Assembly: GCF_041248615.1 (NCBI RefSeq)
Contig: NZ_CP158426.1
Reading direction: 5' to 3' (one strand)
Length of the DNA: 64,000 nt
Source of the DNA: Escherichia coli
GTDB taxonomy: Bacteria; Pseudomonadota; Gammaproteobacteria; Enterobacterales; Enterobacteriaceae
The notes beneath the pieces were generated by a model. That model saw only the letters and a list, made by a program, of their open reading frames with translations, did not search any database and was not told where the DNA came from. Both the position numbers and the translations under genes were made by a program. Below are positions 140 through 4,806 of this stretch, in pieces. Within the stretch, counting starts at the first letter, position 1; every line of letters begins with the position of its first letter.

Positions 140-697
140 TTAAAACGTGGTGGGCGTATGGGCGCTGATAATTCGGCAAATACCTGCCGACGTATTACTG
201 AAACTGTGCGGGATGCCGGTATTAATGGCATAACTTTGCCCCGCGACGAGGTGGTAATCCTGACCATTAATCGTCAGAACAATTTCACCTTCCAGTACAG
301 TGCCTATTTCCTCACCCTGATGCTTAATTCTTTCCCCAGTGGTTGTGCCCGGCTGGTACGTTTCAAAGATCATCGCCAGCGTGCGATTCGGGTTACCGTT
401 ATGAACCAGCTTCATTGACACACCCTGACTGCCCATCTCAATTAAGTCGTCCTGATTAATGACGACCTGCGGCTCATCAGGTTTTTCCGGCTCGGAAAAG
501 AATTCCGAGAGTGACAGACCATACACCTTCAGCAGCTTTTGCAGCGTACTGATGGCAGGGCTGACTTTATCTTGTTCTATCGTACTGATAGCACTGTGAG
601 TCAGCCCGGAGAGTTCGGCGGCACGACGTTGTGAAAGCCCCTGCTGCTGGCGGATTTCCGACAAGCGTTTTCCTGGCGCCAGTCCCTCATCACTCAT
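140..697 (-). CDS. puuR: HTH-type transcriptional repressor PuuR (putrescine utilisation)
   Basis: 185-aa ORF recognised as E. coli PuuR (N-terminal HTH, C-terminal cupin); position downstream of puuD matches the puuDR arrangement. Confidence 0.9.
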   Translation of the reverse strand: MSDEGLAPGKRLSEIRQQQGLSQRRAAELSGLTHSAISTIEQDKVSPAISTLQKLLKVYGLSLSEFFSEPEKPDEPQVVINQDDLIEMGSQGVSMKLVHNGNPNRTLAMIFETYQPGTTTGERIKHQGEEIGTVLEGEIVLTINGQDYHLVAGQSYAINTGIPHSFSNTSAGICRIISAHTPTTF

Positions 698-723: not shown

Positions 724-1488
724 TCAGAGTCGCTGTTTTTCAGCGATATGGTGCTGACAAGCGGTGATAAAGCCCTCGAACAATATACGCGAAAGCGCGT
801 ACTCGCTACTGTTCCATTCCGGGTGCCACTGTACGCCCAGCGCAAAAGGATGATTGATGACGCTAACCGCCTCAACTAAGCCATCCGGCGAGCGAGCTTC
901 AACACGCAACCGTGGGCTAACGACCTTCGCCCCTTGTCCATGCAGAGAGTTTACCCAAAAGTTGCTACATTCAGGTAACAACGCAGACAGTAATCCCCCC
1001 TCTTCAACCAGAACTTCATGCGACGGCGCATATTGCTGCTCCACCGGCAGTTCGGGATCTTCCCGATGTTCCAGCAATTCAGGCTGTTCGCACAGCTTGC
1101 GATGCAACGAACCACCGGTTGCCACCACCAGTTCCTGTAAACCCCGGCAGATGGCGAAAATGGGGATGCGCCTTTCGAGTGCGGCATTAATTAACGCCAT
1201 GCTCAGAAGATCACGCCCGGGATCGGCGTCAGGCTCATCGCCGTTTTCACCATATAGGTGCGGCTGCACATTGCTGGGACTACCAGGAAGATAAATACCA
1301 TCGAGTTTCGGCAAAAGTTGTTCAAGTAATGACGGTTCCGCCAGCGCATGTGGCAGCGCAATTGGCAAGCCGCCTGCGTGGATGATGGCATTCAGGTACT
1401 TTTCTTGCAGAGTCTGGGTCGCATGACCCTTAAGCCTGTTCCTGCACATTACGACACCGATAACCGGATTGTTCATTATATTTTCCAT
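724..1488 (-). CDS. puuD: gamma-glutamyl-gamma-aminobutyrate hydrolase PuuD
   Basis: ORF matches PuuD (class I glutamine amidotransferase-like); start trimmed to the MENIMNNPVIG methionine giving 254 aa. Confidence 0.88.
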   Translation of the reverse strand: MENIMNNPVIGVVMCRNRLKGHATQTLQEKYLNAIIHAGGLPIALPHALAEPSLLEQLLPKLDGIYLPGSPSNVQPHLYGENGDEPDADPGRDLLSMALINAALERRIPIFAICRGLQELVVATGGSLHRKLCEQPELLEHREDPELPVEQQYAPSHEVLVEEGGLLSALLPECSNFWVNSLHGQGAKVVSPRLRVEARSPDGLVEAVSVINHPFALGVQWHPEWNSSEYALSRILFEGFITACQHHIAEKQRL

Positions 1489-1699
1489 GCTCAATCTCAC
1501 AAAGTGGACTAAATTATCGCCATTACTGCGCTTTAAATGACCTTTATGTTCAATATTTTTTCAATCTAGCAGTGGGTTTTCATTTTTGCAAACTCAATTT
1601 AACATTTGACAAACATTTAGTTTGCATACAGATTCGAATGGTGGTCATTATATTTTACGCTTTGATAACGAGCGGAAAACAAACCAAAGGCGAAGAATC
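1489..1699. promoter_or_regulatory. divergent puuD / puuA promoter-operator region
   Basis: 211-bp AT-rich intergenic region between divergently oriented puuD and puuA; the known site of PuuR control in E. coli; exact sites not mapped here. Confidence 0.5.
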
Positions 1700-3118
1700 A
1701 TGGAAACCAATATCGTTGAAGTAGAGAACTTTGTTCAGCAGTCAGAAGAGAGGCGGGGTAGCGCCTTTACGCAGGAAGTGAAACGCTACCTGGAGCGCTA
1801 CCCGAATACACAATATGTTGATGTTTTACTTACCGATTTGAATGGTTGCTTCCGTGGAAAACGTATTCCTGTTTCAAGCCTTAAGAAGCTCGAGAAAGGG
1901 TGTTATTTCCCGGCCTCGGTATTTGCAATGGATATTCTGGGTAATGTAGTAGAAGAAGCGGGCCTGGGTCAGGAAATGGGCGAGCCGGATCGTACCTGTG
2001 TTCCTGTTCTCGGTTCCTTAACCCCTTCTGCCGCCGATCCAGAGTTTATAGGTCAGATGCTCCTGACCATGGTCGATGAAGATGGCGCTCCCTTTGACGT
2101 TGAGCCGCGGAACGTTCTTAACCGCCTGTGGCAGCAGCTGCGCCAGCGCGGATTGTTCCCGGTCGTAGCGGTAGAGCTGGAGTTCTATTTACTGGATCGC
2201 CAGCGCGACGCTGAAGGGTATCTGCAACCGCCCTGCGCGCCCGGCACCGATGACCGCAATACACAAAGCCAGGTTTACTCCGTTGATAACCTCAACCACT
2301 TCGCCGACGTGCTCAATGATATTGATGAGCTGGCGCAGTTACAGCTGATTCCGGCAGATGGCGCGGTCGCCGAGGCCTCGCCAGGTCAGTTTGAAATCAA
2401 TCTTTACCATACCGATAACGTGCTGGAAGCTTGCGATGATGCGCTGGCACTAAAACGCCTGGTGCGTCTGATGGCAGAAAAGCATAAGATGCACGCCACT
2501 TTTATGGCGAAGCCGTATGAAGAGCACGCGGGCAGCGGGATGCATATCCATATCAGTATGCAAAATAACCGTGGCGAGAACGTGCTTTCTGACGCGGAAG
2601 GCGAAGATTCGCCGCTGCTGAAAAAGATGCTCGCCGGGATGATTGACCTGATGCCGTCATCAATGGCGTTGCTGGCACCAAACGTGAACTCGTATCGCCG
2701 CTTCCAGCCGGGAATGTATGTGCCGACGCAGGCGTCGTGGGGCCATAACAACCGCACCGTCGCCCTGCGTATTCCCTGCGGCGATCGCCATAATCACCGC
2801 GTGGAATATCGCGTGGCGGGTGCCGATGCCAACCCGTATCTGGTGATGGCGGCGATTTTTGCCGGTATTTTGCATGGCCTTGATAACGAACTGCCATTAC
2901 AGGAAGAAGTCGAAGGCAACGGGCTGGAACAGGAAGGCTTACCCTTCCCGATTCGCCAGAGCGATGCCCTGGGTGAGTTTATCGAGAATGATCACCTGCG
3001 CCGCTATTTAGGCGAACGCTTCTGCCATGTCTATCACGCCTGTAAAAATGATGAGCTGTTGCAGTTTGAGCGCCTCATCACAGAAACAGAAATTGAGTGG
3101 ATGTTGAAAAACGCGTAA
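1700..3118 (+). CDS. puuA: gamma-glutamylputrescine synthetase PuuA (glutamine synthetase family)
   Basis: ORF matches PuuA; start trimmed to METNIVEVENF giving 472 aa; the ORF-track start at 1622 is a non-ATG upstream extension. Confidence 0.9.
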   Translation: METNIVEVENFVQQSEERRGSAFTQEVKRYLERYPNTQYVDVLLTDLNGCFRGKRIPVSSLKKLEKGCYFPASVFAMDILGNVVEEAGLGQEMGEPDRTCVPVLGSLTPSAADPEFIGQMLLTMVDEDGAPFDVEPRNVLNRLWQQLRQRGLFPVVAVELEFYLLDRQRDAEGYLQPPCAPGTDDRNTQSQVYSVDNLNHFADVLNDIDELAQLQLIPADGAVAEASPGQFEINLYHTDNVLEACDDALALKRLVRLMAEKHKMHATFMAKPYEEHAGSGMHIHISMQNNRGENVLSDAEGEDSPLLKKMLAGMIDLMPSSMALLAPNVNSYRRFQPGMYVPTQASWGHNNRTVALRIPCGDRHNHRVEYRVAGADANPYLVMAAIFAGILHGLDNELPLQEEVEGNGLEQEGLPFPIRQSDALGEFIENDHLRRYLGERFCHVYHACKNDELLQFERLITETEIEWMLKNA

Positions 3119-3420
3119 TACCCCTTGCGGGGTTGTTTCATCGGCCTGAGCGGAGCCAGGCCTGACATTTGCTGGTAATCCAGACATTTCCCGGATGTCG
3201 CGTTATGGAGCGCAGGCGGCAACGGGCTTCCGTTAACGATTAAGACTGTGACGAGGAAATGAGATGATGCCGATGATTAAATCCCCGCATGGCGAGGGAG
3301 GCTGCGTATGCGCCCCTCCTGCGACTGACTGGACTCCGCCCCCTTTGCTTCCCTTGCTAAACAGGTTTGATTTCAGGTCGACACGACCGCAAACCTTATT
3401 ACGCAGGGGAGGCAGCAACT

Positions 3421-4806
3421 ATGGCTATTAATTCACCACTGACTATTGCTGCGCAATCTGGCAAAACCCGTCTGCGAAAATCACTGAAATTGTGGCAGGT
3501 GGTGATGATGGGTCTGGCCTATCTCACGCCGATGACCGTATTTGATACTTTTGGTATTGTCTCCGGCATTAGCGACGGTCACGTTCCGGCGTCCTATTTG
3601 CTGGCGCTGGCGAGCGTGCTGTTTACCGCTATCAGCTACGGCAAACTGGTTCGCCAGTTTCCGGAGGCCGGTTCGGCCTATACCTACGCGCAAAAGTCGA
3701 TTAACCCGCACGTCGGATTTATGGTCGGCTGGTCATCACTGCTGGATTATCTCTTTTTGCCAATGATCAACGTTTTGTTGGCGAAAATCTATCTCTCCGC
3801 CCTCTTCCCGGAAGTGCCGCCGTGGGTGTGGGTGGTAACCTTCGTCGCCATTTTAACCGCCGCGAATCTGAAGAGCGTCAACCTGGTCGCTAACTTCAAT
3901 ACCCTGTTTGTACTGGTGCAAATCTCCATCATGGTGGTGTTTATCTTCCTGGTGGTTCAGGGACTGCATAAAGGAGAAGGCGTTGGCACCGTCTGGTCAC
4001 TTCAGCCGTTTATCAGCGAGAACGCGCACCTGATCCCGATTATTACCGGGGCGACGATTGTCTGTTTCTCCTTCCTCGGTTTCGATGCGGTGACCACGCT
4101 TTCGGAAGAGACGCCGGACGCCGCACGCGTGATCCCGAAAGCCATCTTCCTGACGGCGGTATACGGCGGCGTTATCTTTATCGCTGCGTCGTTCTTTATG
4201 CAGCTGTTCTTTCCCGATATCAGCCGCTTTAAAGACCCGGACGCCGCACTGCCTGAAATTGCGCTATACGTCGGCGGCAAGCTCTTCCAGTCGATTTTCC
4301 TCTGTACCACGTTTGTGAACACGTTAGCGTCTGGCCTGGCGTCGCACGCCAGCGTGTCGCGTCTGCTGTATGTGATGGGGCGTGACAATGTGTTTCCGGA
4401 GCGCGTGTTTGGCTATGTGCACCCGAAATGGCGGACTCCGGCACTGAACGTCATTATGGTCGGGATTGTCGCGTTGTCAGCGCTGTTCTTTGATTTAGTC
4501 ACCGCGACAGCATTGATTAACTTCGGTGCTCTGGTGGCATTTACCTTCGTAAATCTGTCGGTGTTTAATCATTTCTGGCGGCGTAAAGGAATGAATAAAA
4601 GCTGGAAGGATCACTTCCACTATTTGCTGATGCCGCTGGTTGGCGCGCTGACGGTGGGTGTGCTGTGGGTTAATCTCGAGTCAACGTCACTGACACTCGG
4701 TCTGGTATGGGCTTCGTTAGGCGGCGCATATTTGTGGTATCTGATCCGCCGCTATCGCAAAGTGCCGTTGTATGATGGTGACAGAGCGCCGGTGAGCGAA
4801 ACGTAA
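3421..4806 (+). CDS. puuP: putrescine importer PuuP (APC family permease)
   Basis: ORF matches PuuP from [12 protein letters not shown] (461 aa); multiple hydrophobic helices; ATG at 3421. Confidence 0.9.

Follow-up and report, generated by a model that had tools for sequence, protein, structure and literature searches.

ymjE, a conserved open reading frame overlapping the start of the putrescine importer gene puuP in Escherichia coli, as a candidate cis-acting translational leader

Between puuA, which encodes glutamate-putrescine ligase (1700-3118), and puuP, the gene of the putrescine/H+ symporter (3421-4806), the puu locus of Escherichia coli leaves a spacer of 302 nt, and a short open reading frame (ORF) in this spacer runs into the first codons of puuP. 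What is this frame for? We address the question in a 64,000-nt stretch of E. coli DNA (contig NZ_CP158426.1), hereafter the window, to which coordinates refer; features lie on the plus strand unless stated otherwise. The ORF itself is not new: it is the already known gene ymjE, the purpose of which is missing from databases and from the literature that we searched. We propose, with a probability of roughly 65%, that ymjE is a translated leader ORF that acts in cis and couples the translation of puuP to its own.

The frame occupies 3264-3431 (55 codons and a stop) and is preceded by a GAGG Shine-Dalgarno (SD) sequence at 3253-3256, 7 nt 5′ of the ATG at 3264 and in the conserved context tgacGAGGaaatgagATGATG. 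An earlier note, made from the letters of the window, had described this ATG, the GAGG-type SD and a 55-codon frame running to a TAA, all of which the sequence and the ORF list bear out; its statement that the TAA overlaps the puuP ATG needs correction. The stop (3429-3431) lies at +8 to +10 of puuP, where codon 3 contributes its wobble T and codon 4 its AA, so that the two ORFs share 11 nt (3421-3431) and the ATG triplet is untouched. In E. coli genomes RefSeq annotates ymjE at what corresponds to 3267-3431 of the window, in the same frame from the second ATG, and VanOrsdel et al. 2018 likewise start it at 3267 (54 aa). Because the first ATG is the one kept in every genus compared, a start at 3264 appears at least as plausible. 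A mini-frame of three codons, ATG AGA TGA (3259-3267), overlaps the ymjE start codons; it is found in most genera (aaATGagATGATG), but not in Klebsiella/Raoultella (gtaggagATGATG).

The identity of the gene is clear. The peptide matches the Pfam family PF23692 (YmjE-like) with 147.5 bits, the gathering cutoff being 27 (E 1e-43), agrees fully with WP_120795382.1 from residue 2 (Met2) on, and is encoded where ymjE of E. coli K-12 is, between puuA and puuP, on the same strand and overlapping the puuP start; in NCBIfam we found no YmjE model. Megablast of the spacer returned a match in 4,373 of 5,426 complete E. coli genomes, and an annotated coding sequence (CDS) stands at the ymjE position in 30 of the 30 records listed, mostly as ymjE or YmjE family protein and twice as ‘hypothetical protein’. 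Public resources treat ymjE as a small protein of unknown function that begins one ATG later than the frame described here; their records contain neither a cis-regulatory reading nor a distribution beyond Escherichia and Kluyvera. The product is made in the cell. VanOrsdel et al. detected chromosomally SPA-tagged YmjE (MPMIKSPHG...) by immunoblot and described it as a formerly unidentified positive of a tetracycline ribosome-profiling screen, encoded immediately upstream of puuP (PMC6001520), and Weaver et al. ranked it with the least abundant of the small proteins (bioRxiv 10.1101/511675).

Taken alone, the frame in E. coli is not a significant observation, because 6% of shuffled spacers match it: among 5000 dinucleotide-preserving shuffles of the 302 nt, 297 contained an ATG-initiated ORF of at least 55 codons ending no more than 15 nt from the puuP ATG. 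Its significance comes from comparative data. We compared 80 puuP-type loci, one genome per species. Each of the 62 puuP/plaP-type loci of Enterobacterales that bear an upstream ORF (uORF) has a frame of 55-77 codons with its stop at +8 of the transporter ATG. All species with puuA directly 5′ and a long spacer (about 270-430 bp; ~2 kb in Hafnia) show the same frame, which opens with ATG, spans 55-72 codons and stops at +8; among them are Escherichia, Pseudocitrobacter, Klebsiella, Raoultella, Citrobacter, Enterobacter-like taxa, Cedecea, Trabulsiella, Lelliottia, Buttiauxella, Pluralibacter, Franconibacter, Hafnia and several Serratia. Between the conserved SD and the puuP ATG, 15 distinct distances occur; inside any one of three groups they are always a multiple of three apart, and indels in pairwise nucleotide alignments measure 3, 6, 9, 12 or 15 nt, with one ambiguous exception. 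Conservation of the reading frame across Enterobacterales had been singled out beforehand as a check, and the frame is indeed open in all 62 of these loci.

Substitutions also follow the pattern of a coding sequence. The ratio of non-synonymous to synonymous differences (pN/pS; Nei-Gojobori, nucleotide-aligned pairs) is 0.51 in the ymjE frame and below 1 in 25 of 25 pairs, as against 0.89 and 0.94 in the other two frames. Taken with the kept frame and the N-terminal codon pattern described below, these values indicate that ymjE is translated and that purifying selection on it is weak to moderate, with its peak at the N-terminus. Several rare Arg codons had earlier been read as a hint that the frame might be fortuitous. 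Each sits at a site constrained as RNA, AGG 3405-3407 within the SD of puuP, and AGG 3363-3365 and CGA 3384-3386 in the helices of the hairpin described below, and we attribute their presence to these overlapping constraints (SD plus hairpin). Antisense to ymjE, a TTG-started frame of 61 codons (3233-3418, minus strand) is present; nothing supports it as a gene, and it probably just mirrors the frame open on the sense strand.

The stop deserves separate attention. In all 62 uORF loci the wobble position of transporter codon 3 is T, although this is reached through six different codons (ATT, TTT, GCT, ACT, GAT and CAT), and codon 4 begins with AA in 61 of them and with AG in one. The wobble position of codon 2 is T in only 17 of the 62, and in the five Serratia loci devoid of the uORF codon 3 of puuP ends in A. 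The pattern points to selection on the stop position itself.

A second feature links the uORF with puuP at the level of RNA. The puuP SD, GGGGAGG (3406-3412), which also encodes the R-G-G of YmjE, is held in a hairpin of 71 nt (3345-3415): the 5′ arm UUGCUUCCCUUGCUAA, part of the ymjE coding sequence, pairs with the region containing this SD, and an inner helix is formed by AGGUUUG and CAAACCU. In E. coli the hairpin folds with a free energy (dG) of -35.3 kcal/mol (z -5.4), and none of 200 shuffles folded equally well. RNAalifold recovered the same two helices from 29 Enterobacteriaceae, with compensatory double changes in 7 of 13 pairs, among them C-G to U-A and C-G to G-C in the SD helix; 96.3% of the cells of the consensus are paired, compared with 35-54% when the partners are slid, and the covariation score was reached in 0 of 500 shuffles. 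A UCCCC run pairs with the G-rich SD also in Serratia, Hafnia, Franconibacter, Edwardsiella and Photorhabdus, despite quite different sequences. The anti-SD arm is supplied by a C-rich, G-poor tract in the middle of ymjE (3311-3357), with a C content of 0.47 and a G content of 0.21 in E. coli, means of 0.36 and 0.22 over 53 loci, and flanks of about 0.25 and 0.30.

Together, these features suggest the following sequence of events on a puuA-ymjE-puuP transcript. With its SD buried in the hairpin, puuP would hardly be open to initiation by a free 30S ribosomal subunit. A ribosome that had started on ymjE (ATG 3264/3267, from the SD at 3253-3256) would have to unwind the hairpin, because the 5′ arm of the latter is ymjE coding sequence, and would then terminate at the UAA a few nucleotides past the puuP AUG; either the same ribosome or a newly recruited 30S subunit could thereupon initiate at the exposed SD and AUG. 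Melting of the hairpin and termination at the puuP start would thus make PuuP synthesis a function of how often ymjE is translated, and we infer such a dependence of puuP on ymjE translation. Two hallmarks of coupled leaders are present in the locus, a stop within a few nucleotides of the downstream start and a downstream SD sequestered in a structure that translation of the uORF unwinds. The earlier note had suggested translational coupling or uORF-mediated control; the covarying hairpin on the SD, with its 5′ arm in ymjE, and the stop at +8 in 62 of 62 loci speak for that suggestion, and so do the direct junction of leader and puuP in some Serratia and the yoeI-plaP overlap together with its complementation behaviour (PMC11630599), to both of which we return below.

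How often ymjE is initiated may be governed by the segment in front of it (3138-3262), which includes stretches complementary to the SD and start codons of ymjE. These 125 nt are the most conserved block of the spacer, above the uORF itself, and contain four helices: P1 (3143-3148/3157-3162), P2 (3171-3175/3180-3184), P3 (3190-3192/3224-3226) and P4 (3197-3201/3216-3220). By RNAalifold and pair counts, 96.9% of cells are paired, and 0 of 500 shuffles reached the score of the alignment. Compensatory changes occur in P1 (G-C/U-A and C-G/U-A/G-C) and in P2 (A-U in 18 sequences, U-A in 16), and the hairpin loops are invariant (GAGCGGAGCC; A-N-GGAGC). Two conformations can be drawn. In one, an anti-SD element, CAUUUCC (3185-3191), pairs with GGAAAUG (3255-3261) in the SD region of ymjE; in the other, a closing helix is formed on the start codons AUGAUGC, where UCAU (3138-3141; GCAUCAU in other genera) is complementary to AUGA (3264-3267). 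Both helices are invariant, and since the pairings never vary, covariation neither confirms them nor tells them apart. A scan of 2900-3700 on both strands with Rfam covariance models gave no match at E values up to 1, and sensitive blastn for a second copy of the leader in E. coli found a single locus per genome. We regard the leader as a candidate regulatory RNA that probably sets the frequency of ymjE initiation, in which case some controlling signal would presumably act on it. GGA motifs in the leader hairpin loops and in the SD resemble CsrA binding sites and are putative sites of this kind; in Serratia, GUACAGGAC stands in a hairpin loop just 5′ of the SD.

The leader is preceded by a terminator-like hairpin found by pattern scan directly 3′ of the puuA stop (ACCCCTTGCGGGGT; 3120-3143), with a weak T-tract, and other genera have hairpins of different sequence at the same site. 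Attenuation of the classical trpL/hisL type finds no basis in the locus: the sole terminator-like site in 2950-3550 is the one at 3120-3133, 5′ of the ORF, the hairpin within ymjE lacks a U-tract and finishes at the SD of puuP, and ymjE contains no run of regulatory codons. A scan of the spacer for sigma-70 promoters found nothing. At 3158-3173, AGGCCTGACATTTGCT fits the sigma-54 pattern GG-N10-GC (match at 3159-3172); as a conserved feature this site was rejected, the correct spacing being confined to Escherichia, with 12 nt in Klebsiella and no GG in Cedecea/Citrobacter, and the match could still be a promoter specific to E. coli. For both puuP and ymjE, RpoN and RpoS are given in an EcoCyc-derived table (PMC10100675), and in the literature that we searched nothing tied puuP to a uORF, a leader peptide, a riboswitch or RpoN in this region.

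The distribution of the uORF suggests to which neighbour it belongs. In Shimwellia, Edwardsiella and Photorhabdus a uORF with its stop at +8 precedes a PuuP/PlaP-type gene, and the genes upstream are unrelated; in Erwinia the uORFs are shorter, with 25 and 41 codons, and end in TAATG or ATGA overlaps. In five Serratia species (L043, L047, L052, L058 and L061) the puuP ATG comes immediately after a homologous leader, the hairpin GGCGUACAGGACGCC and the SD, whereas in their uORF-bearing congeners the same initiation region opens the uORF instead. For the species devoid of the uORF this concerns the region about 130 nt upstream of puuP. CCATGAC is the sequence at both junctions, and a simple deletion from one start to the other could account for it. 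Such a pattern would be expected of a uORF set as a relay between a regulated site of initiation and the gene of the transporter. By comparison of the loci, the uORF goes with the transporter rather than with puuA and can be removed.

A related arrangement exists at plaP (b2014), the gene of the second putrescine importer, which is a paralog of PuuP (63% identity; PMC11630599). In K-12, the annotated ORF yoeI (b4678; L085 9053-9115, minus strand; MGQFFAYATVITVKENDHVA) lies 5′ of plaP, overlaps it by 11 nt and ends with a TAA at +8 inside ATG-TCG-CAT-AAC. The N-terminus of YoeI, MGQFFAY, shares the pattern M-x-Q-x-F-x-Y with the YmjE-family consensus MMQMFKY, and longer uORFs of the PlaP type begin with MGQFFTLAP... 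(a Serratia paralog), MGQSFAFAP... (Edwardsiella) and MEQLFSIAL... (Photorhabdus). Profiles of PlaP-type and YmjE-type uORFs align with an hhalign probability of 92%, part of the score coming from the shared C-terminus encoded by SD and ATG. The likeness between the two loci thus consists of a paralogous transporter, the 11-nt overlap, the stop at +8 and the N-terminal pattern; the differences are the length of yoeI, which has only 20 codons, the want of an evident SD-sequestering hairpin, and the NCBIfam label of YoeI as a membrane protein. Databases leave these ORFs unconnected: they record the wider family only sporadically, as ‘hypothetical protein’, and the Pfam YmjE model misses Klebsiella (25.3 bits, cutoff 27), Citrobacter, Serratia and all PlaP-type members. 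Halvorsen et al. 2024 reported that plaP alone complements poorly and a yoeI-plaP construct fully, and suggested an effect of yoeI on PlaP expression (PMC11630599); this is the only experimental hint for the uORF family.

Several points weigh against coupling as the function of ymjE. The start of puuP has a canonical SD-AUG spacing of its own, and E. coli yoeI-plaP shows no obvious hairpin on the SD, so that unmasking by melting of a hairpin does not hold for all members of the family. In E. coli, some puuP mRNAs may lack the upstream half of the leader. Expressed from a vector ribosome-binding site without ymjE, puuP complemented well (PMC11630599), which makes the uORF dispensable for PuuP function as such, and the literature searched contains no experiment on coupling between ymjE and puuP. 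Finally, coupling alone would let the peptide drift, yet an N-terminal motif and, in most genera, a second motif, RS(D/E)YG, are conserved as amino acids, which points to an additional role.

Among other explanations, the one that survives best is polarity exerted by Rho. Here ribosomes on ymjE would cover a C-rich site resembling a Rho-utilisation (rut) site, and Rho would terminate transcription ahead of puuP or inside it whenever the leader was untranslated, in the manner of tnaC, speFL and mdtU. The C-rich tract at 3311-3357 has a composition like that of a rut site, richness in C and poverty in G recur in the uORF middle across loci (53 loci), and there are precedents for combined control of polyamine genes by a uORF and Rho (PMC7815308). 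Against this, the anti-SD arm also demands C-richness, and a published 3′-end dataset that we checked contains no 3′ ends or bicyclomycin effects for the leader, although the puu genes are poorly expressed in its media; in the 3′-end mapping paper and its supplements there is no signal in ymjE or the puuP leader and only an antisense signal in puuA. As the main effect of ymjE translation we hold this possible at fairly long odds, and the C-rich middle is compatible with Rho polarity as an added layer.

A nascent peptide that senses a ligand is doubtful, and would in any case be an elaboration of coupling rather than an alternative to it. With its N-terminal motif, and in most genera RS(D/E)YG(P), inside the exit tunnel, YmjE would pause the ribosome in response to a metabolite, for instance putrescine or another polyamine, and thereby alter exposure of the puuP SD or loading of Rho. 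Room for such a sensor is left by the two peptide motifs, which pure coupling does not explain. The first is encoded at 3264-3302 (MMPMIKSPHGEGG in E. coli; family consensus M-x-Q-x-F-x-Y-P-H/Q-G-E-G). Over the first 12 codons the consensus is M-Q/P-M-F-K-Y-P-H/Q-G-E-G-G/E, as against M-P-M-I-K-S-P-H-G-E-G-G in E. coli, and diversity per site across genera is 0.17, 0.21 and 0.41 at codon positions 1, 2 and 3, third positions thus varying 2 to 2.5 times more than first and second. The motif is conserved as amino acids, with synonymous variation, is common to otherwise very divergent uORFs of the PuuP and PlaP types, and is kept even in YoeI with its 20 aa; RS(D/E)YG also shows synonymous variation in six genera (Serratia, Hafnia, Franconibacter, Citrobacter, Edwardsiella and Photorhabdus). 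The peptide sequence, beyond the RNA, therefore seems to be under selection over roughly 12 N-terminal residues, while constraint on the whole ORF is weak (pN/pS 0.51), which itself counts against a sensor.

APP and PPP are stall-prone motifs known in connection with elongation factor P (EF-P). E. coli YmjE has both, and the PPP codons (3336-3344) lie just 5′ of the anti-SD arm, but neither motif is conserved, and PPP is polymorphic within E. coli (PSP, PHP). Escherichia has lost or diverged from both family motifs (MMPMIKS as against MMQMFKY; no RSxYG), and K. oxytoca has no Pro or Gly-Pro at the second one. On the other side stand the precedents of speFL and mdtU-mdtJI in the polyamine pathway (PMC7815308). 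PPP as a conserved EF-P-dependent pause, absent as it is from most genera, was dropped, as was the idea that the G-rich GEGG codons are a conserved anti-anti-SD partner, since the amino acids are kept but the G-run is not kept at the nucleotide level.

A broader proposal would make ymjE and yoeI the E. coli members of one ancient family of leader ORFs on PuuP/PlaP putrescine importers across Enterobacterales, in which the peptide motifs and the leader RNA, unmatched in Rfam, form a translational switch responsive to a metabolite, possibly a polyamine. We consider this speculative and rather improbable; if true, the switch would be a bacterial counterpart of the eukaryotic uORFs that sense polyamines.

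It is also improbable, and more so, that YmjE acts in trans as a free small protein, modulating PuuP, PuuA or PuuR, for example, with the overlap merely ensuring co-expression. Tagged YmjE does accumulate to a level visible on immunoblots, pN/pS is below 1, and databases treat YmjE and YoeI as proteins. However, AlphaFold2, run with an alignment of 49 sequences, predicts no fold and no secondary structure (predicted local distance difference test, pLDDT, 56; predicted template modelling score, pTM, 0.13), the peptide has no hydrophobic segment, and its length ranges from 55 to 77 residues. Its middle is barely conserved, and much of the conservation at the C-terminus coincides with the RNA helices, the SD and the puuP start. 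The ORF is missing from several Serratia that retain the leader and puuP, and the paralog YoeI is down to 20 aa, with only the N-terminus and the stop geometry kept.

The two remaining explanations are essentially excluded. A fortuitous ORF in a region conserved only as RNA or DNA (hairpin, SD and leader), the worry voiced in the earlier note, would agree with the chance rate of about 6% in a single sequence and with the part of peptide conservation that RNA helices explain. It fails on a frame open in 62 of 62 loci despite divergence and many indels, nearly all of 3n, on an excess of third-position variation found only in the ymjE frame, and on a stop fixed through six identities of codon 3; ymjE is an annotated gene with a conserved start context and coding-type substitutions, the tagged product of which has been detected. 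Least credible is a programmed +1 frameshift at the ymjE stop (UAU UAA U read as UAU-AAU), which would fuse YmjE to PuuP from residue 4 and resemble polyamine-stimulated antizyme frameshifting or prfB: puuP does lie in frame +1 with respect to ymjE, the place of the stop is strictly kept and a G-rich SD-like element stands upstream, but the last sense codon varies (UAU, UGC, GAC, GGC, CUU), the SD is 13 nt from the shift site as against 3 nt at prfB, puuP has its own AUG at canonical SD distance in every species, and species devoid of the uORF start PuuP at the same N-terminus.

Known leaders help to place the coupling that we favour. At ermCL-ermC and secM-secA, as at ymjE-puuP, a short uORF precedes a gene whose SD is held in a hairpin that the leader ribosome opens; there, a programmed stall, dependent on a drug or on secretion, keeps the hairpin open, and the stop of the leader is well short of the downstream start. 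The ymjE frame, by contrast, continues through the hairpin, and its stop comes 8 nt after the downstream AUG, a geometry that suits termination and reinitiation. Ordinary coupling of overlapping operon genes, for example trpE-trpD, works through ATGA or TAATG overlaps. With this type ymjE shares an upstream stop within a few nucleotides of the downstream start, and the Erwinia uORFs use the very overlaps ATGA and TAATG; it differs in being tiny, weakly constrained, without a predicted fold and placed behind a structured leader, which gives it the look of a regulatory device more than of another enzyme or subunit. The leaders speFL-speF/potE and mdtU-mdtJI resemble ymjE as small uORFs in front of genes for polyamine synthesis or transport that exert control through their translation (PMC7815308), and the C-rich segment of ymjE adds to the likeness. 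They act mainly via Rho-dependent termination and do not overlap the downstream start, and we saw no sequence similarity between them and ymjE.

If the coupling holds, the comparative case recasts an orphan small protein as a testable cis-regulatory device for the level of the main putrescine importer, one that would act after transcription has been released from PuuR. It also links YmjE and YoeI, named separately, as versions of one family of leader ORFs on paralogous importers. Should the peptide motifs or the leader RNA respond to polyamines, bacterial polyamine homeostasis would gain a new post-transcriptional feedback loop. A caution follows for other small ORFs found by tagging or profiling, which may be regulatory leaders and not functional proteins.

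In the window, the puu locus comprises puuR (140-697, minus strand) and puuD (724-1500, minus strand), followed by puuA, the upstream context gene, puuP, the proposed regulated gene, ymjA and sapA; puuA and puuP were delimited from the ORF list and from RefSeq annotation, for puuA that of identical DNA. The puuA-puuP spacer (window 3100-3450) is missing from 1,053 of the 5,426 complete E. coli genomes, and six matches are on plasmids. Within E. coli, the segment 3136-3300, which covers the leader and the 5′ part of the uORF, is at least 99% identical in 4,036 of the 4,373 matching genomes, and the whole 351-nt stretch in 1,424. A locus labelled Chryseobacterium sp. 18061 has a puuA-uORF-puuP arrangement typical of Enterobacteriaceae, with PuuA 90% and PuuP 87% identical to E. 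coli, and the assembly is probably mislabelled or contaminated. In E. coli CFSAN061770 (L084 2668-3608), the insertion sequence IS1 lies in the 3′ third of ymjE and parts the cut-off uORF from the hairpin, the SD and puuP.

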